Assembly: GCA_965218435.1 (NCBI GenBank)
Contig: CBDCKW010000005.1
Location: 256,001-320,000, forward strand
Direction of reading: 5' to 3'
DNA length: 64,000 bases
Source of the DNA: Truepera sp.
GTDB lineage: Bacteria > Deinococcota > Deinococci > Deinococcales > Trueperaceae
Shown one piece after another: positions 38,753 to 49,550 of the stretch. Numbering within the stretch: the first letter of the stretch is position 1; each line of letters begins with the position of its first letter. A program made the translations under genes and the position numbers. The notes beneath the pieces were generated by a model, which was not told the origin of the DNA, did no database searches, and saw only the letters and a program-made list of their open reading frames with translations.

Positions 38753-39055
38753 GCAATACGGTAGAGCAAGTCTTCCGCTAAAATACATCACCGGTTCCAT
38801 TTTGCATTTCTCAACTTCGTATCTACGTACGGGAGGTTGCAAGCTGTAAAGGGTAGTGGATTCAAGCTCCGATATTCAATCGCTCTCTCGCCTGCTCCAA
38901 CATGTCACGCGCGATACGGTTGGGGCTGTAGCCCCCAGTCATATGGACAAAGGGTATTTCCCCGCGCTTTACACGTCTGCGCCAACTCTTGGTGAGTATG
39001 GTTCGACCAGCGAACGAGCAGTAAAACGACGGCCACCTCGTCGGTAACTTCTAGT

Positions 39056-40101
39056 AAATCATCTGCGAAATAGCGCCGAAGGAGTCAAAGGACTAAACTA
39101 GCAGGATGAAAGCGAGCCGCTTAAAGAGAAAGCCCAAGCATCTGTATAACTTCACAGGTTTAAGCGTCGAGCAGTTCAAGTTGCTTAGTAAAGCGGTCGA
39201 AGTACGCCTTGCCGAACCAAAAGGCACCCAGGGCAAATTACGTCAACGTGCAGTAGGCGGGGGACGCAAGGCAGAACTAGGGGTAGAGGATCAGGTTTTA
39301 GGGGTGCTGCTGTATTACCGTTTGTACCTGACCCAGCTGCTACTAGGCTACTTATTCAACTTGGATGATAGTAACGTCAGCCGTTTGATCAGCAAACTTC
39401 GACCTGTACTACTTGAGGTTCTCCCCTTACCAGCGCACGAGACAGTTCTTTTTGGTCAAGCTAAAAGAAAGCGTATCGCAAGCCTAGAAGAACTGCTTGA
39501 GCAGCATCCTGAGTTCAAGGAAGTCTTGGTTGATGCTACCGAGCAAGAAATCCAGAAACCCAAAGACAAGCAAGAACGCAGAGACAAGTATTCAGGTAAG
39601 AAAAAGCGACATACGCTCAAGACCCAAATCACTGCCACCAACACAAAGCTTATCCTTCATGTGACACGTTCTTTACCAGGCAAATTCAGCGACGTCAACG
39701 TCCTTAGAGGTACCGGGGTGTTACGAGCTTTACCTACGGCTACCGAGGTCCGAGTGGACAAAGGATATGACGGTATTGATAAGGATTTTCCCCATAGAAC
39801 CTTCCATCAGCCCAGCAAAGCTAGAAGAAACAAACCCCTGGACTTCATCCAGAAATGCCTCAACAAAGTTCAAAACAGCCTGCGTTTTCCTGTCGAGCAC
39901 ACACTGGCTCACTTGAAACGCTTTAAGCTCTTAGCGGGTATCTACCGAGGCCCAAAAGCTGTTTATGATGACACTTTCTTAGCTATCGCGGGGCTTCATA
40001 ACTTCAGAAAGTTAGATGCTCTGGCTTGGTAAGCCGACTTAAACCCTTTCTCTAAGCCTAGCTACTTTATTCTGATCGTGTACTTATTTCGCAGATGATT
40101 T
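39056..40101 (+). mobile_element. IS5-family element (HTH + DDE transposase 39106..40032)
   Basis: Terminal IRs AAATCATCTGCGAAATA / TATTTCGCAGATGATTT, AGT on both flanks; VDATE, YSGKKKRHTLK, DKGY, R..VEH. Confidence 0.9.
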
Positions 40102-40231
40102 AGTTCAAGTAAGCTCAAATTGGTATGCGGCGCAGTTTCTAGCTACCTAATCTGGCAGGCAAAAGCCGTCCCGAGCCGTCGTTTAAGCCAGCTCAACAGC
40201 TGCGCTGGTGGTCTCGAGCCTGGCGGTAGGC

Positions 40232-41035
40232 TCAAAGCTCAGACCCTCCTCCGCGAGAATGCACGCGCGTATAGTGCGCCTTAGCTTTGCCGAGGCGTCG
40301 CCAGAGGTCGGGGTCAATAGGGATAGGCCGGACACTCCCGCTAGCGAGCGAGTAGAACGCCCCGTGATAGGTCAGCGTCCCGTGCCGCAACAGCTGCCAG
40401 AGCAGATTTAGAATAGTTGTTGCAGCGAAGTCGTTGACCAGTAGGTCTTGCTTTGTAAGCGCCTCGAGCGTGCTACAGCTGGGCAGGTCGTCTTCGGGAA
40501 TACGCGTGTCGCAGAGTTCGGGAAAGAGTTCGTACGCGATGCGTAGGCGCTCTTGCTTCCGGCGATTGTAGTAGCCCAGGGGTTGTCCCAGCACGACCTG
40601 ACCGGTGCTGGCAAGATTCCCGGCAGAGACGTGGTAGACGACCCGGTGGAGCCCCCCTGCAATCGTTGCCCTGGCTGCGCGTGTATCTACGCAGTCAATT
40701 ACTAACCTTGGACTGTCGTAGCCGTTTCCGTAGCTGCTGTCGATCTCATGTGGGTAAGCTTTCCACGAAAGGTTGAGGCGGTTGATCAAGACCTCGGCTT
40801 TATTGAGACCCACATCTGATGGGTAGAAGCTCTGCCGGACGAGGTTACTTTCGCTTACGGTGTCGCCGTCGGCGAGGACGACCTCGAGGCCGGGATAGCC
40901 GAGCGCCCGGAGACCCTGGTGGATGTTCTTGAGGCCGACGACGACCTTCGAGCCTGTCCCGCCAGCACCCACAACGAGCGTTCGGATGGGCATTCTGGAG
41001 TCTTGAAAGTACGGGTGCAAGGTGTGGCTAAGCAT
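40232..41035 (-). CDS. PRTRC system ThiF (E1-like) protein
   Basis: GAGGTGS, DGDTVSESNLVRQ, DCVDT, PSCS..EAL.KQDL. Confidence 0.85.
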   Translation of the reverse strand: MLSHTLHPYFQDSRMPIRTLVVGAGGTGSKVVVGLKNIHQGLRALGYPGLEVVLADGDTVSESNLVRQSFYPSDVGLNKAEVLINRLNLSWKAYPHEIDSSYGNGYDSPRLVIDCVDTRAARATIAGGLHRVVYHVSAGNLASTGQVVLGQPLGYYNRRKQERLRIAYELFPELCDTRIPEDDLPSCSTLEALTKQDLLVNDFAATTILNLLWQLLRHGTLTYHGAFYSLASGSVRPIPIDPDLWRRLGKAKAHYTRVHSRGGGSEL

Positions 41036-41747
41036 GAAAGAGGTCTCCGAGTGTTTCAGTAAGGGGAACCAGCTGCTCAGTAGGGAAGTGGCCCTCTTCT
41101 CTGACCCGCTGCCAGAGTTCGCCCATCGTGCCGCCCCAGTTGCGGTAGAGCAAGTTCGATGAGCCGTGAGTAAAAGCCGAGGCGAAAAAACCGCTCGAGT
41201 ACCCTGCGGTGTCTTTCACACTCAGCGTGTCAGGTAGCGACGTTGACCCTAAACAGACGCCGCTAGTCGAAGTGTTCCAATAGGGCGCAGTGTAGAGCCT
41301 CGAGGCTGCGGTGGGGCGTTCATCGTTGTCTAAAGCCAGCACCCGCAGGCTTCTGTGACCTGCGATAAAGAGCAGGGGAGGCTGCGGAAAACTCGAGCCC
41401 GAAAGCTGCGTGAGCAGGGGGTCATTACATGCATAAAACATCACCCGCTCCCTAGCAGGCTCGAACCACACGAGGTTCTCGTTGTTGGCGGCCAGGACGT
41501 GCGGCGGCAGCAGCTCGAGGCCGGACACCGGACTGAGGGCTTGAGAAAGTTCACGGACGGCCTCGACGTTTGCGAGGGTGCCTGGCTCGAGCATAGGTGT
41601 CGCGCCGTCGTAACGCACTGTGTGGACCGACGCGAAGGTGTCTGCGGGTGCGCCGTAGGTGTCGCAGGCATTTTCGTAGATCAAAATGGCCTTTTTAAGC
41701 ATGACCTCGTTGTGATAGCCGAGTTGTACCTGCACGTCGATACTCAT
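41028..41747 (-). CDS. PRTRC system protein B (prokaryotic E2-related)
   Basis: A.LIY...FASVH.V...LLPP.VL...PQPPLLF...RP....LY.AP.WN....VCLG...FF.S.FTH. Confidence 0.8.
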   Translation of the reverse strand: MSIDVQVQLGYHNEVMLKKAILIYENACDTYGAPADTFASVHTVRYDGATPMLEPGTLANVEAVRELSQALSPVSGLELLPPHVLAANNENLVWFEPARERVMFYACNDPLLTQLSGSSFPQPPLLFIAGHRSLRVLALDNDERPTAASRLYTAPYWNTSTSGVCLGSTSLPDTLSVKDTAGYSSGFFASAFTHGSSNLLYRNWGGTMGELWQRVREEGHFPTEQLVPLTETLGDLFHA

Positions 41748-41911
41748 GCCATCGCCTCCAGGGCGTAAAAGAGTGCGTTCGTCTGTTCGAGGATGAGCCT
41801 ACACACCGTTAGGGCGTCTTTTAGAGTCGTCAGCGTTTCGGGATCGTCAGGGTCGAAGCCAAGGGCGTAGGTTGGTTGAAAGTCCGTTCCCGCCTGCCAG
41901 ATCTGCTGCTC
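41744..41911 (-). CDS. PRTRC system protein F, exon 2
   Basis: EQQIWQAG...LEAMA*, in frame with exon 1 after intron removal; ATGA overlap with protein B. Confidence 0.75.
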   Translation of the reverse strand, partial: EQQIWQAGTDFQPTYALGFDPDDPETLTTLKDALTVCRLILEQTNALFYALEAMA

Positions 41912-44320
41912 ATCGGGTAAGGAGACGGCATCACTGCCGCCCCCTCCCCTCAGAACCGGACGTGCCTCTCTCAAGGCATCCGGCTCAAGCAGAAAATGAA
42001 GCATCAAAGGAGTAATTCTCTCGTAGCTCGGGGAAGATTATCTTTCACCGAGCCGTGGACTTGTTGGTGACAGGTTAGATGCAGTATCCGCTGTTTTGCA
42101 AAGTCATGCCGTGCTAAATTCTTTTGGTCAGTAATCAAGTGATGACGATGCAGTGGCTCACCGTTATTCAGCGAACCAAAACACACGGGGCAGATAAAGT
42201 CGTGTTGCTTAGCCACCTCATAGTGAAGACCTGAGAGACCGGAGTACTTTCGACTTCTCTTTGCCCAATAGTTTTTCTGCAAGGCGTCATCGGGTGCAGC
42301 AAGGTTGAATACCAACCGATGCCGCGTGATTTTGAACCAAGCGAGCTTCGCCAGATAAGTGTTGCCGTCGGGGTCGCCAAAGACCCACCGAGCTTTTCTT
42401 AAGTGATGATGCTGCCCAAAGTATTTAGCTACGCGCCAGCCAACCGATTTTGTCGGGTGTTGCCATCTTATCCACTTGACCAGCTTTTGGAAGAGCCAAG
42501 AGTCAAGCGAGGCAAACACCTTTGCTGACGAAACGGGTTGAAAATAACGCGCCCAACCACGTAAAACGGGGTTGAGATGGTGGATGAGCACCTGAGCATT
42601 GTGCCCCCTTAAGCGCACAAACATCTCGGTAAGCTTTTTCTTGAACCTTGCGATTGAAGCGTTGCTGGGTTTGACAAGCCCGACGACCTTTTCTGGGTTA
42701 TCTCTCCGCTGATAAAGCCGGAAATTACACCCAAGAAAGTCAAAACCTCCCGTGAGATGCCTGATCTGGGTTTTAGCCTCGTTGAACACGAGTCCCCGAT
42801 CTGCAAACCACGTTCTCAGCTTTGTGCGAGCTTGTTCTGCTTCCTCACGAGTCTTGCAGAAAACGATAAAGTCGTCTGCATATCTCACGAGACCATAGCG
42901 GTTCTTACTGGATGTCTGACCATTGGCATAACGAGCAATACCAAGGGTCGTTTCCATGCCGTGAAACGCTATGTTAGCCAGCAAGGGACTAATAACACCT
43001 CCCTGCGGAGTACCCGCAGGCGTATCGTGCTTGACGGTACCGTCCATGAAGCCTGCCTTTAGCCACTGTTTAATCAGTTCCTTGGCGGGAAACTGACCGA
43101 TGGCCTGCAACAGGTGGGTATGGTCGATATTGTCAAATGCCCCTTGGATGTCTGCATCCAGTATCCACTGCTTAGTAGCGCGTGCCCTGCAATAGCTATA
43201 GGTCATACTCAGGGCGTCGTGGGTACTTCGCCCTGGTCTAAAACCGTAGCTACTTGGCTCAAAGCGAGCCTCCCACTCAGGTTCCAACGCATTTTTGACG
43301 CGTGCTTGATGAGCCCGGTCGCCAATGGTTGGTATCCCAAGCGGGCGTTTAGCACCACTTTGCTTCGGGATATAAATCCTGCGCGCAGGTTTGACATGCC
43401 AAGGTTGGGACTCTAGCAATTTGTCTACTAGAGCGGCCTTGGCTTTCGAGGTTAAGGCAACCTCTTTATCCACCCCTGCGGTTTTTCCACCCGCATTGTC
43501 CACAGTGACGCGACGGACGCTAACAACAGTGTTGGCGTAACTCCGTAGCATCAGCTTTTGGAGAGAACGAACCTTTTTAAGGTTCCCTTCCTTTGATGCC
43601 CTAAAGATTCTCTGTCTCAAGTTGCGTACCTGCCGATTGGCGCTACGCCAGTCAATGACCTGCCAATCGGTCGGGCTTTTGGTTCCGTTTGCTAAGCTTG
43701 GCGCTTGCATCTAACTTGCACCTCAATTCGCAACTTTCACGTTGGTCTTTAGGATTTCCACCAGTCCCGCGTCAGCTCCCTTTCAGGATGGGTATGCCCG
43801 TCATACGGCCCTATCCGGTGGGTTATGAATTCCCCGTGCCTTTCGGCTACCGGCTTTCGCTTTTCGGGACTTCTTGTTCCCGCTGGAGGGTTGTGCCTCG
43901 CTTGCGCTTGGCCTACCACTTGTGTGGACTCCATCGGGGTTTCCACGTTCCGCACGTAAGAGATGTGATCGGTTGCGGATGCCTTTTGTACCCCGGGTTC
44001 TTGGTGCCCTTGCATGAGCGCTATGCACCCATGACGCCGCGCAGCTTGAACACAGAGCTACGCCTTGAACCATGATCGTTTTGCTGTCGTCCAGCGATCT
44101 TTCTACCTTACGAGGCTTACAAAGGTTCACTTTCGTTCATCCTTCCGATCTTCTCCTTGCCTGTGGCCTTTTGACGACTAACGGCTCTTGGGCTTTCATT
44201 CGGGCTTCGCACCCTGTCGTTACCAACAACGCACGCCGAATGTGGAGATAGGCTTCAGGCACTCGCCTAGTTCAACCCTATGAGGGTTGAACACTCTTAC
44301 TGTGCGACTTCGTGTCGCAC
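41912..44320 (-). mobile_element. Group II intron 1 (IIB/chloroplast-like), 2409 nt
   Basis: 5' GTGCG; domain V GAGCCGGATGC...GCACGTCCGGTTC, domain VI, end TTACCCGAT; candidate EBS1 (44016-44021) and EBS2 (44057-44064) pair with exon 1. Confidence 0.95.
42004..43710 (-). CDS. ltrA: Group II intron reverse transcriptase/maturase with HNH-like C-terminus
   Basis: RPLGIPT..DR, GFRPGRS, GTPQGG.ISPLL.N, YADD, domain X, CPVC...HH...CH. Confidence 0.95.
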   Translation of the reverse strand: MQAPSLANGTKSPTDWQVIDWRSANRQVRNLRQRIFRASKEGNLKKVRSLQKLMLRSYANTVVSVRRVTVDNAGGKTAGVDKEVALTSKAKAALVDKLLESQPWHVKPARRIYIPKQSGAKRPLGIPTIGDRAHQARVKNALEPEWEARFEPSSYGFRPGRSTHDALSMTYSYCRARATKQWILDADIQGAFDNIDHTHLLQAIGQFPAKELIKQWLKAGFMDGTVKHDTPAGTPQGGVISPLLANIAFHGMETTLGIARYANGQTSSKNRYGLVRYADDFIVFCKTREEAEQARTKLRTWFADRGLVFNEAKTQIRHLTGGFDFLGCNFRLYQRRDNPEKVVGLVKPSNASIARFKKKLTEMFVRLRGHNAQVLIHHLNPVLRGWARYFQPVSSAKVFASLDSWLFQKLVKWIRWQHPTKSVGWRVAKYFGQHHHLRKARWVFGDPDGNTYLAKLAWFKITRHRLVFNLAAPDDALQKNYWAKRSRKYSGLSGLHYEVAKQHDFICPVCFGSLNNGEPLHRHHLITDQKNLARHDFAKQRILHLTCHQQVHGSVKDNLPRATRELLL

Positions 44321-45325
44321 ATACTCGCCGTAGACCTCCCGCACCAGGTCGTGGTCGCCGCCAAGCGTGACGATAACGCCAAAAGGCAGTTCGCCCTCGA
44401 TCAGGTCGTCAATGTGCCGGTCGCGTTCAGGGAGCGCCCCTTGCAGTTCAGCAAGTTTTTCCAGCGCTGTGATGATGGGCAATGCCTGCTCGAGCTTCTC
44501 AGTGCAGAGACCCCTACACCTCTCGAGGCTTAAAGCGCCGTGTTCCTGGTAGCGGGGCTCGAGGCGCGCATCGACCTTTTGGCTGGTCAGGAAGTGTTCC
44601 TGGGCGTAGGCAACGACATCCTCGTGGGTAAAAGCTTCTTTCCTGTCGCTAAACTGGTACTCGAGTTCCTCCTCGGCTTCTTCCAGCAACATACTGTCGT
44701 CGTCCATTCCTTGCCAGTAGTGCCAGCGGATGATGTCTTTGGCGACTTCGGGTGTAAACGCCGGGGTCAGGTCGAGCGTGCGGTAGACGTGCCCGAGGAT
44801 GCTCGGGCCGAGCTGCGGCTCCAGCTTGTCGAACGCCGTCGCCGCCGCGTCAAAGGAGATGACCGGAACGCCGCCGACGAATACCAGCAGGTAGTGACGC
44901 CCTTGTTCCTCGAACTTTGCGACCCGAAATGCGAGGTCGAATCCCGGATAGCCGAGGCTGTTGCCGAGCGTTCGGGTGATGGCCTTCTCGATGAGTGCGT
45001 TCGGGCTGCTGTAGGGCGCGTCGTCGCACTCGTGGACGAGTCCGACCTCGAGTAGCCTCAGCGCGAGCTGAGCCGAGGCAGCCTGCTCATTGTCAAGGCT
45101 GTAGTGCGAGGGGACACCCTCCAGCCGGGGAAGCGCTAGTCCAGCATAGGCAGGGAGGATGAAGGTGGGCGTTTGGCGGGTTTTCCTGTCCGACTGCTCA
45201 GCCGGGCGAGAAGCTGACCGACGGCCTGCGCGTGCGGGTCCTTGAGGTAAGCCTGCACGAGGGGTGGGTTGTGCGTTTTGCCCGAGGTGCTCCGGGCGAG
45301 TTCCTCTCCGAGTGTAGACACGCAT
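44321..45325 (-). CDS. PRTRC system protein F, exon 1
   Basis: AAAGGAGG RBS; LALPRL..VP motif, YWQG.DD acidic segment; position upstream of B and ThiF. Confidence 0.7.
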
Positions 45326-45450
45326 AAGCCTCCTTTGGCAGATAAATGCAGGGCAACTTCGGTTGCCCTGGAAACTTATACCCAGGTTCTAAATGCACAT
45401 TACGGCTTGGCTGAGACTGACTTTAAGCTGCACCTCGAGCCGTGTGCCAA

Positions 45451-45936
45451 TCAACGTCCTTCATTGGCAAGTCGTGCGTCGAAGCGGAAAGACCGGGGAG
45501 CCTCGATGGTCAGCTCTGTGAACTGCGGGTGTTCGGGGTTGAGCAGATAGTTCCGTTCCTCGGGCACGATGACGCTGGGGACGGCTAAGGCGACGCTTGC
45601 CTGCGCCGCCAGCCACGCATCCCCAACTCGCCTCGCACCGTCGCTGACCGCCCTTACCTGCCAGTCTTCGGGCAAGTCCTGCTGGCGCAGCTCGAGAACG
45701 AGCCGTTCGGGAATCGCGAGCTTGAAAACCACGTACTCCCGCTCGAAGCGCCGCCTGTCGGCGTGAACCAGCGTTTCCAGCGCGGCGAGTGACAAACTCC
45801 CACTGACGTAGACAACGCGTCTACCCGGTGTGTTCCAGCGTCCGCCGAAACGCCGTGCGCCTTCACCGTTAAAGGCGTCGGCTCGGCTGCCATACCTGGA
45901 TCTGACGAGTCGCCAAGCCGTGAACACCTCAGCCAC
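45451..45936 (-). CDS. RES domain toxin (MbcT/ParT-like)
   Basis: WRL...GEGA.RFGGRWN...Y.S.S.SLA.LE..VH...VPS.IVP.E.NYLLNP.H. Confidence 0.92.
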   Translation of the reverse strand: MAEVFTAWRLVRSRYGSRADAFNGEGARRFGGRWNTPGRRVVYVSGSLSLAALETLVHADRRRFEREYVVFKLAIPERLVLELRQQDLPEDWQVRAVSDGARRVGDAWLAAQASVALAVPSVIVPEERNYLLNPEHPQFTELTIEAPRSFRFDARLANEGR

Positions 45937-45956
45937 AAAGGTCGTTGAAACGCCGG

Positions 45957-46391
45957 TTAACTGTAAATGCCGTAGTCGATCCGCCCGAGCAGGTTCTCGA
46001 CCTCTCTTGCGCCGATCTCGGTATCGGCGTAGCCCAGCGGCGTGAGGTTGCCCAGGCTCAGATTTGGTGTTTTAAGCCACGCCGCTGCGTCACCGACGTC
46101 TTCAAATACCTGTGCGGCGCGCTCGAGCAAGTTGGCCAGGCGGAGTACGTGTTCGCTTTCGTCCGGGGCCAACCGGCCTGCACGCTTACGGCGGGTCAAC
46201 GTGGTTCCGCTGATTCCTGCCAGGTTTGCAAGCATCGCGTCGCTGACGCCCAGTGCCTCAGCGAGCGTGCGAAAGACCTGAATGGGCAACCCGCTCCTTA
46301 CGACCTCAATCAGGTCACGTGGGCGGTTCGTCAGACCTAACGTCTGTAAGACGCCCGTTGACCGAAACGGGGGGGGAACAAATGCATCCAT
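45957..46391 (-). CDS. Xre/MbcA/ParS antitoxin
   Basis: GLP...TL.RRK..G.L...ESE...W...PN.SLG..TP...V..LL.RI.YG.YS. Confidence 0.92.
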   Translation of the reverse strand: MDAFVPPPFRSTGVLQTLGLTNRPRDLIEVVRSGLPIQVFRTLAEALGVSDAMLANLAGISGTTLTRRKRAGRLAPDESEHVLRLANLLERAAQVFEDVGDAAAWLKTPNLSLGNLTPLGYADTEIGAREVENLLGRIDYGIYS

Positions 46392-47155: not shown

Positions 47156-49550
47156 GCTGGGTAAAGAAGTGGCATTACTGCCACTCCCTCCCCTAAGAAC
47201 CGGACGTGCGAGTTTCCCCGCATCCGGCTCAAGCTGTTCAAAGCCCCGGTGTTGGGGCCAGTTTCACAGCGTCGAATCGTCGGCTATGAATCTGACTATG
47301 GCAGTTGGGATGGATCATCAGCAAGTTGGATTGTCGATTATCACCGCCGCTGGCTCGTGGGATAATGTGATGGACATGCCATCCCTGTTCTCCCGTAAGC
47401 TTTTGGCGGCATACCGGACATGTTCCTCCTTGTTTTAGCCAAAGGGAACGCAACCTCTGTCGTCCGTCTAGTGAGGTCCTCATTTTGAAGGTCAAACGCT
47501 CTTCAAAGTAGGCTTCCCACCGGGGGTCGAACGGGTTGGCCTCCGTTTTGACCTTGATGTGTCGCTTAATGGGTACGTCGCCTGCGTTAAACAGTCTTGT
47601 CCATTGAGGCGTTCCATCGTTTAGGGTTTCCCCTGTTTTCGCCGCGAATACCCAGTTCCGGCTTCCCTTAGAGATGAAGTATTTATCCTTCAACCAGTGA
47701 GTGCCTTTGCCAGGATGACGGCGTTTTATCCAGCGCCATAGGGTTTGCCAAAGCTCTTTATTCACTGACTGAAACGTTTCGCTAGCAACAACATGTCTGT
47801 GATAGTTTGCCCATCCGCGTATCACCGGGTTGAGTTGTTTAATCACATGGCTTTGTTTTGCCGTTGGCTGACGTTTCACGATTTCTCTGACTTTATCCAA
47901 GAACGTCTTGACGCTCTCTTTTGACGGCTTAATGAGTAGCTTGCCGTCGTACTTGCGGATATTTTGCCCTAAGAAATCGAACCCCTCTTCGATATGGGTG
48001 ATTTTGGTTTTCTCTTGCGAGAGTTCCAAACCCCGAGCTGCCAGAAACTTGGTAATCAGGGGTTTAACTTCATTTTCTAACAACTCTTTTGAGTAGCCAG
48101 TCATAATGAAGTCGTCTGCATACCGAATCAGATTGACCTTCTAGGTGAATCGTTTTCCATCAACCGTTTTCCGTTTGAAGCCTTTGGTTAACAGGCATTC
48201 GAGGTCATCCAGGGTCATATTCATCAACGTTGGCGAGATGGGGCCGCCCTGCGGTGTCCCTGCCTCTGTTGGGTAGAGGGTCTTGTTGTCAATGAACCCA
48301 GCCTTCAGCCACTTGCGGAGCGTTACCTTGTCCGTGGGGATATGGTTCAGCATCCACTCGTGCTGAATCGTGTCGAAGCAGGCTTTGATGTCACCTTCCA
48401 GAATCCACTGAGCAGACGCTTTTGTTCCGAGGGAGTTAAAGCACCCTTCAATGGCGTCTGCCGTGCTTCGTTCTGGCCTGAACCCATACGAGTTCTTATC
48501 CGCTGTGGTCTCCGCGACGGGTTCGAGAGCCAGCAGGTAAAGTGCCTGCATCGCTCTATCCTTCATCGTGGGAATACCCAGCGGGCGCATCTTGCCATTG
48601 CTCTTAGGGATGTACACCCGCCTCAGCGGGCTTGGTTTGTAACCATGCCGTTTGAGGGACACGATGGCTTGAGATTTGGCCGCCGGGGTGGACCAGGTTG
48701 CCCCGTCTACACCCGGCGTGTTCTTGCCTTGATTCTCCGTCACTCGCCTGACAGCTAAAGCTTTGGCCGAGAACGAGTGGGTCAGCGTCCACTGCAAGGC
48801 TTTCACCTTGCCATGTCGGCCTTCCTGTGTCGCCTTTACAATACGCGCCTGGAGTTTCCTCACCGTTTGGTAGCACTTGGCCCAGTCGATGCTGTGCCAG
48901 TCCACGTTTGAGTGGGAGGATGCACACGCTTTAGCGTTCATTTGCCTTTCCTCCTTAAGAGATTCTTCAAGCTCCCTTGTAACGAACAACCATACGGAAG
49001 TCTGCCCGCTTTCGCGTGGGGTGATGTCGCGGCTGCTCAACCCCTATCTGCCCCATTACAGAGCAGCGTTCGCTTTCTCCGCGCTCCTCTACCCACAGCC
49101 CTATCGGCCCGCCTTGCGGCTTGCTTTCCTTTACAGGAGGACTATGGGCTTACCGTGTTTCATCTAAGTAACAACGATGGGTTAGACCCTGCCTCTTCAC
49201 CGGTGGCCGTTTTATCCGTGTAACCCCAGCCAAGAACAGGGTTAACTGAGCCACGTACCTTTTGGTTCAAGCCTGTCAGCGTCTTTGGCTTGTTCTTGAT
49301 GACGATGTTTATCAGCAGTTCACATGTGTTGGTCATACCATCGAGCCCAGTCCCCTGACCGCTTTACGCTAGCAGCCAACGCTTTTACCTCACGGTTCGT
49401 GCGTAATCTTTCGATTCGGGTACTCTTTTCTCGGCAGCTTCACACCAGAGCGTTACCACCCTCGCATGTGCCGATAGGCTACTGTTGACGGAACAACAGG
49501 TTTTGTCGTCAGAGACGCAAAACAATTACTTAGACGACTTCACGTCGCAC
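47156..49550 (-). mobile_element. Group II intron 2 (IIB/chloroplast-like), about 2395 nt
   Basis: 5' GTGCG at 49550; domain V GAGCCGGATGCGGGGAAACTCGCACGTCCGGTTC; end TTACCCAGC; candidate EBS1 CUUGGC (49229-49234) pairs exon end GUCAGG. Confidence 0.92.
47238..49040 (-). pseudogene. ltrA: Intron 2 RT/maturase/HNH interrupted by one in-frame TAG (48141-48143)
   Basis: ...DGKRFT*KVNLIRYADDFIMTG...; both halves otherwise open, HNH intact. Confidence 0.9.

Follow-up and report, generated by a model that had tools for sequence, protein, structure and literature searches.

The 64,000-nucleotide (nt) stretch of Truepera sp. DNA analysed here (GenBank assembly GCA_965218435.1, contig CBDCKW010000005.1, positions 256,001 to 320,000; hereafter the window) carries a PRTRC-like cassette in which the gene for a protein F-like product is followed by those for protein B and ThiF. 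Two properties of this F gene concern us: it is interrupted by a group II intron, and its 5' end overlaps, in the +1 frame, a small open reading frame (ORF) whose start codon lies behind the same Shine-Dalgarno sequence as that of F. The genes and the start site are as follows, with lengths of products in amino acids (aa):

45329..45333, minus strand: Shine-Dalgarno sequence GGAGG common to two starts, 3 nt from the ATG of F and 7 nt from the GTG of the small ORF
45136..45321, minus strand: 61-aa ORF hidden in the 5' part of F and read in the +1 frame; C-terminus PMLD, with the stop on the first Leu of the LxLP motif of F
44321..45325, minus strand: first exon of F, a divergent PRTRC protein F-like gene; 335 codons, with disorder predicted for residues 1-77
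41744..41911, minus strand: exon 2 of F; 55 codons and the stop, with the last strand and last long helix of the predicted model
41028..41747, minus strand: PRTRC protein B (Prok-E2_D); TIGR03737 151.4 against a cut-off of 131.45; ATGA overlap with the F stop, and a GGAGG of its own
40232..41035, minus strand: PRTRC ThiF (E1-like); TIGR03736 232.9 against a cut-off of 144.75

Calling ORFs on the window splits F into two, 342 and 87 aa long, as an earlier note on this DNA had said, and removal of the intron yields a 390-aa F ORF in phase 0 whose stop overlaps the ATG of protein B. Many shifted junctions also keep the frame open, so an open frame does not by itself fix the junction; it is fixed exactly because an intron-free twin allele, 99% identical and present in the same genome assembly (G000:C5:55803-54634), has exon 1 directly abutting exon 2. 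This twin, the kind of allele that the earlier note had proposed to look for in relatives, and the four identical intron copies of the genome together bear out the boundaries given there (44321, 44320 and 41912, phase 0, 390 aa, stop on the start of B). A failure of homologs to align over the junction had been named beforehand as evidence against a split gene; of the 17 database homologs aligned across it, 16 are gap-free, and P0013 has a deletion there.

The identification of the product as PRTRC protein F, also made in the earlier note, stands in part. Against the TIGR03742 hidden Markov model (HMM) the 390-aa product scores 28.0 bits (E 1e-6), short of the cut-off of 58.4, with a match (residues 159-364) that spans the junction; exon 1 alone matches weakly. 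Of 32 relatives scanned, six phmmer matches of this F do pass that cut-off (P0039, P0044, P0048, P0050, P0059 and P0066), and the F-B-ThiF order of the PRTRC system (TIGR03734-03742) is present, with the E2-like B and the E1-like ThiF both exceeding their cut-offs. Only its relatives and the order of the genes justify calling the product protein F, and we use the name in this sense. Proteins C and E are not in the window cassette and occur only on contig C4 of the genome; for protein A (JAB) the genome gave no match, and neither did the controls. ThiF matches 436 plasmid records, the best of them from Deinococcus.

In the predicted model of F, residues 1-77 have a predicted local distance difference test score (pLDDT) below 50 and the junction falls inside helix 327-342; the unspliced precursor would, by this model, give a 342-aa F without the last strand and long helix. 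A fold search with the model returned nothing at E 0.001 (best Z 4.9), F was not found in 60 relatives nor in 127 family genomes, pattern scans for F in the genome and in viral contigs found nothing, and the plasmid search gave no match to this F or to P0030. A promoter and terminator scan of the locus stayed near chance level.

The +1 reading frame at the 5' end of F

The explanation that we favour has two parts, and taken as a whole we regard it as likely: judging from sequence, the 5' end of F would be dual-coding, with a small helical gene in the +1 frame that is conserved in PRTRC cassettes and mostly lacks annotation there, and the intron would be a tolerated parasite and not a switch. 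The first ~60 codons of the 390-aa F ORF overlap the 61-aa +1 ORF. At 11 of 11 clade loci with DNA (three from this genome and eight from one metagenome assembly), a conserved +1 ORF of 61-66 aa is accompanied by an F leader that is open, Arg-rich and poorly conserved. The 390-aa ORF of the earlier note is exact, but its first ~60 residues, counted there as part of F, would be a disordered leader and a mere shadow of the small gene. Differences among the clade loci are spread over all three codon positions, and under synonymous resampling the F frame stays open with a probability of 0.04-0.44 per locus (11 loci). Homologs of the small ORF form 77 clusters of called proteins, mostly 66 aa long, and its product is predicted to contain three helices (model pLDDT 66). 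It has no family model in Pfam or NCBIfam, its model had no match in a fold search, and an Atlas lookup gave only a lead at 0.76; among 8000 candidates no longer protein was found to hold the small ORF, which is weak evidence.

F-like genes were found by profile search in 26 of 364 genomes of the phylum, presumably Deinococcota. For counting the +1 ORF at such loci we used an anchor independent of the +1 frame, which replaced a first anchor that had failed for most loci; a set of stops picked by motif had missed C4 and L009, and the counts rest on the anchor-based set. A +1 ORF of at least 44 codons ending in [LMI][LI][PDLEIA] before the stop lies upstream of the core in 41 of 55 F-like copies and in 23 of 31 clusters (60% identity), and the same ending occurs at 1 of the 484 +1 stops inside F cores. 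The GC content at third codon positions (GC3) of the leader is 0.78 for the +1 frame against 0.53 for the F frame, with the +1 value higher in all 23 positive clusters; in the core it is higher in only 5 of 23. A chance open frame in GC-rich DNA would be in keeping with two observations, namely that +1 frames of at least 44 codons are common inside F cores too and that Atlas recognition of the small ORF is low (1426). Such an origin is nevertheless highly improbable in view of the amino-acid conservation at 35-50% identity, the better Shine-Dalgarno spacing, the GC3 signature and the fixed stop.

The arrangement extends to plasmids. Twelve named plasmid loci were fetched and one (L073) was dropped, the gene examined there not being F-like; in 9 of the remaining 11 named PRTRC loci the +1 stop falls on the first Leu of the LxLP of F. 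In Ralstonia solanacearum it falls on the ATG of F, three codons earlier, and the ORF is fused behind protein C; in Polaromonas it lies about ten codons before the LxLP Leu. Among the plasmid loci only the Azospira RefSeq record annotates the ORF, as a hypothetical protein. Among 588 peptides searched with an HMM of the small ORF, the ORFs of Azonexus and Aromatoleum come out on top (E 7e-6 and 8e-4), and when F-frame N-termini were used to infer the +1 frame, 9 of 21 proteins gave z of at least 3.5, the proteobacterial-type ones giving nothing. Two side observations concern these loci. Upstream of the F match in L071, the frame of the ubiquitin-like protein C does not stop at the KG end of that protein and continues into the small ORF; and L045, L048, L051 and L053 hold tandem arrays of three F-like paralogs, of which only one has a motif-bearing +1 ORF.

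Since the stop keeps the same place, where the core begins, across three phyla, one may ask whether F is made as a fusion, the small ORF being read and a -1 shift near its conserved end leading into the F core, so that the F leader is never translated. This would accommodate the Azospira locus, whose F frame is closed 7 codons upstream, and L061, which has no upstream F-frame start, as well as 15 of 41 overlaps, in which the stop is TAA or TAG and no NTG start is available. However, no common slippery sequence is visible in the overlap contexts, the window has no stable downstream structure (z +0.9), most loci have an in-frame upstream start, many with a Shine-Dalgarno-like site, and some start by ATGA or GTGA at the overlap; we judge fusion unlikely. 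In distant loci F starts mostly 30-67 codons before the overlap, in some at an ATGA or GTGA overlap, and one is without an upstream start.

Alternatively, the small ORF might act in cis, its hydrophobic C-terminal peptide slowing termination and thereby setting re-initiation on, or traffic along, the F frame. In the +1 frame the last residues are indeed kept at the amino-acid level while their codons vary synonymously, the F frame varying freely, and the overlap reads CTGA, GTGA, ATGA or TTGA at 26 of 41 loci. Conservation nevertheless includes the N-terminal helices, as expected of a folded product, and the in-frame fusion behind the ubiquitin-like protein C in Ralstonia suggests a role as a protein; we find action in cis rather doubtful. 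Dual coding, with a small protein and F each made from its own frame, is the reading with which we continue.

Two starts behind one Shine-Dalgarno sequence

In this clade the two frames open together: both lie behind the arrangement GGAGG-N3..5-RTG-N-RTG in 11 of 11 loci. Genome-wide there are 16 such tandem sites, and at 4 of them both frames run for at least 55 codons, 3 of these being the F loci. The window allele has no start codon at the overlap, and the ATG at 45325 is the sole upstream start in the F frame. One GGAGG would here divide ribosomes between two frames, both products presumably being translated, perhaps in a fixed ratio.

The closest likeness is the rnpA/rpmH pair of Thermus (Feltens et al., 2003, as described in the accessible part of PMC9841429), in which one GGAGG likewise precedes two starts one base apart, AUGGAUG, and a short gene is nested out of frame in the 5' end of a long one. 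That part of PMC9841429 calls it the only earlier bacterial ambiguous start of this type. In Thermus both products have been demonstrated and the genes are housekeeping genes, whereas here the genes belong to a mobile cassette and the arrangement is a prediction; this genome's own rpmH is without such a shared start.

Three side observations touch the start site. A hairpin lies before the shared start (window 45349-45370), and the twin allele carries its 4-nt loop in inverted form. In the predicted fold the Shine-Dalgarno sequence and the F ATG pair with an upstream strand (z -2.3). L007 (G000:C4, 42-5710) holds another cassette, which encodes proteins E and C as well as an F paralog that carries the intron and starts exactly AUGGAUG; its contig ends 41 bases past the intron.

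How might such a site have arisen? The small gene would be an old part of PRTRC cassettes, with its stop directly next to the F core. The start of F would have shifted between lineages, and in this clade it would now lie 4 nt before the start of the small gene, with one site feeding both frames. For this step, an old component with a shifting F start and a single site in this clade, we lean moderately toward the scenario described. The complete proposal is wider, and we offer it tentatively, as a possibility somewhat short of even: PRTRC cassettes in at least three phyla would carry an unrecognised gene in the +1 frame of the F 5' end, one Shine-Dalgarno sequence would in this clade start both genes from codons one base apart, making it a second natural, lineage-wide case of the rnpA/rpmH type, and the small gene would set the amount of F.

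Several observations weigh against dual coding and the shared start. The ending motif was defined after the data had been seen, and 14 of the 55 copies fail it; in the newer plasmid loci the ORF ends in Phe, failing the strict motif and passing by position only. The link by the small-ORF HMM is not significant for 4 of 6 betaproteobacterial ORFs. The 11 tandem-start loci represent only about five lineages, and distant F loci lack a tandem start at this place, mostly using starts inside the small ORF. Finally, the 3-nt spacer to the F ATG is short, AUG initiation being efficient down to a 4-nt spacer according to the part of PMC9841429 available to us.

As for function, our guess is that the small protein might be a small adaptor in the conjugation module, because B and ThiF are E2- and E1-like and the ORF is in one case fused to the ubiquitin-like protein C. 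The small gene without a family model in Pfam or NCBIfam sets this cassette apart from the PRTRC system as modelled. In the literature covered, which lay outside subscription papers and supplements, no description of an overlapping PRTRC gene was found; the accessible portions of PMC3318190 and 10.64898/2026.10.01.756045 just name the system. Plasmids often carry PRTRC cassettes. If the proposal is true, a conserved component has been missing from the system and the N-terminus of F has been annotated from the shadow of the wrong frame, which would lead reconstitution and deletion studies astray. With such sites occurring as a natural family, the sharing of output between two frames by one ribosome-binding site could also be tested directly; this would be valuable because the Thermus pair is called the only earlier bacterial case (PMC9841429, in the part accessible). 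The hidden gene with its shared start matters more than the intron, which is one more selfish insertion.

The intron, its targets and the surrounding mobile DNA

The intron and its parts are listed below; EBS stands for exon-binding site, and IEP for the intron-encoded protein, a reverse transcriptase (RT)/maturase.

41912..44320, minus strand: group II intron, IIB-type; 2409 nt, phase 0, four identical copies in the genome
42004..43710, minus strand: IEP; 568 aa, with YADD
41912..41988, minus strand: domains 5 and 6 (D5, D6); Rfam RF00029 61.9 against 40 bits, bulged A seven bases from the 3' end, fold z -5.2
44048..44053, minus strand: EBS1 GUGUUC; pairs exon positions -6..-1, at the tip of an Id3-like stem, 23 of 24 pairs over four targets
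44102..44107, minus strand: EBS2 GGUAGA; pairs exon positions -14..-9, 22 of 24, all Watson-Crick, unpaired in the predicted fold
43988..43988, minus strand: probable EBS3 (C), by analogy with IIB introns; in an unpaired ACA of the fold, +1 being G at 4 of 4 targets

The intron runs from GTGCG at 44320 to ACCCGAT at 41912, its removal restoring the target, and Rfam also finds a piece of domain 1. The IEP, which the earlier note had rightly called intact with YADD, passes TIGR04416 (341.9 against a cut-off of 300) and contains RVT_N, RVT_1 and GIIM domains. Its C-terminal HNH-like region is degenerate: Cys and His residues are present, but there is no Pfam HNH match, unlike in the IEP of a neighbouring intron. 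The closest plasmid IEPs are 46-52% identical, and the best PDB match is the full-length maturase 6me0 (E 2e-101), which we take to be the Thermosynechococcus T.el4h maturase, of class IIB and chloroplast-like. The neighbouring intron (window 47156-49550, minus strand) is intergenic, just past a stop codon; both genomic copies of its IEP have an in-frame TAG before YADD, the other copy also a 5-nt deletion, and this IEP is probably dead.

Four intron copies in the genome are 100% identical and share both ends. Besides the window copy, C4:2450 lies in an F paralog (36% identical) at the same codon, C5:563511 in a metallophosphoesterase gene in phase 0 and C9:777764 in an integrase gene in phase 2; the targets thus span three unrelated gene families and phases 0 and 2. 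Among 128 family genomes the whole intron was found in this one only. For the target code every hexamer of the first 620 nt of the intron was scored against the four 5' exons, and GUGUUC ranked first, a second copy of it at 44294 being paired inside a hairpin. The EBS assignments of the earlier note do not survive this comparison: its EBS1, GCGCUC, makes 18 of 24 pairs over the four targets, mismatches the A at -2 in all four and is mostly paired in the fold, and its EBS2, CGUAG, lies within the stem under EBS1. All four 3' exons begin GAGC. The intron would accordingly read its target by EBS1, EBS2 and probably EBS3, and would need GAGC past the junction. A rule built from the four sites leaves only 2 empty targets in the genome, one being the twin allele, and L013, a metagenome F locus, carries a perfect empty target. 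The intron target matches the conserved Y-x-E-[YH]-E stretch of F genes, and two of the three F-like genes of this genome are occupied at the same codon; F may be the usual home of the intron, with ectopic copies in the phosphoesterase and integrase genes. With four targets and an empty allele, the target code of the intron is unusually well defined.

The intron is an ordinary, mobile IIB-type group II intron, its mobility presumably recent. It has the GUGCG..AU ends, D5/D6 and an RT/X IEP with YADD of mobile IIB introns with a chloroplast-like-class IEP, and like them it reads targets by EBS1, EBS2 and EBS3, with several copies at degenerate sites in mobile DNA, where group II introns often sit (PMC7306698, as far as its accessible text goes). 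Its degenerate-looking HNH region and the position of the intron-binding site IBS2 at -14..-9 are no difference of kind. Presumably self-splicing and retro-mobile, it would have homed recently into one of two near-identical PRTRC-like cassettes, and splicing would restore F, probably at a lower yield.

Two contigs of the same sample, X1 and X2, hold both the intron-bearing and the skipped form, with depths of 194, 45 and 86 in X1 and of 983, 227 and 489 in X2. Relative to the depth that two cassette copies would give, the intron is at ~4x and the skipped junction at about half, contig depth being a poor measure of copy number; the depths fit two cassette copies in the assembly. We rejected the skipped junction as a sign of splicing, as it is explained by the intron-free DNA allele: a junction read alone cannot show splicing because the twin allele has the same junction as DNA. 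The window allele and the empty twin differ in their bases at 44651, 44661, 44669 and 41381. That both cassettes reside in one cell rests on the assembly and on these contig depths, which also counts against our account.

The earlier note had gone further and proposed the intron as a possible gate, with full-length F and perhaps, by coupling, B and ThiF depending on splicing; such splicing might be set by conditions. Full-length F of this allele does appear, from sequence and model, to need splicing. In favour of a gate, the last strand and helix of the model are encoded by exon 2. Occupancy of two F-like genes at one codon would also suit it, as would reports that group II introns lower host-gene mRNA (PMC6003770) and that splicing can be cold-sensitive (PMC7293003), both from partial texts; in contigs from two further runs there are weak hints of related introns in F-like contexts. 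Yet identical intron copies sit in unrelated genes, the intact, ~99%-identical intron-free cassette is in the same assembly, and none of the 8 metagenome F loci carries an IEP. Other genomes gave 39 matches, many of them distant genes that may lack the intron target; 28 cross the junction in one open frame and 11 stop short of it. A separate GGAGG precedes the ATG of protein B by 7 nt, and exon 2 is in frame with an ATG that overlaps the stop of the IEP, so that ribosomes could arrive at the start of B without splicing. Stable, conserved occupancy of the host gene by the intron was not found. With the twin cassette intact and a separate ribosome-binding site in front of protein B, evolved gating is unsupported, and we consider it quite unlikely. 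As an observation apart, the ATG at the IEP stop runs through D5/D6 into exon 2 (window 42004-41744, minus strand), and the precursor could give an 86-aa peptide ending on the B start.

A tolerated parasite, as we propose, would have its parallel in Ll.LtrB, a IIA intron in the ltrB relaxase gene. There too the interrupted gene belongs to a mobile element, the host protein depends on splicing and output is expected to fall (PMC6003770 and PMC7293003, in the parts accessible); the effects were measured there, while here an intact twin allele coexists and a fall in output is a prediction. Every group II intron that sits in a gene imposes this need for splicing, as is already known from Ll.LtrB (the same two partial texts).

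The surroundings of the cassette are mobile as well. A RES/Xre toxin-antitoxin pair lies directly upstream (window 45451-46391, minus strand) and is present in L008 too. Right after ThiF there is an insertion sequence-like element (window 39055-40102) which the twin cassette lacks and of which C9 has 8 near-identical full copies. Compared with its twin copy, ThiF has a short replaced segment (window ~40700-40765) and is 4 aa shorter, both frames being intact. Window 1-53300 mostly duplicates G000:C5:13456-63562 at ~93-98% identity, which reflects either two related mobile elements or two replicons joined in assembly, and the first bases of the contig recur at 242532.

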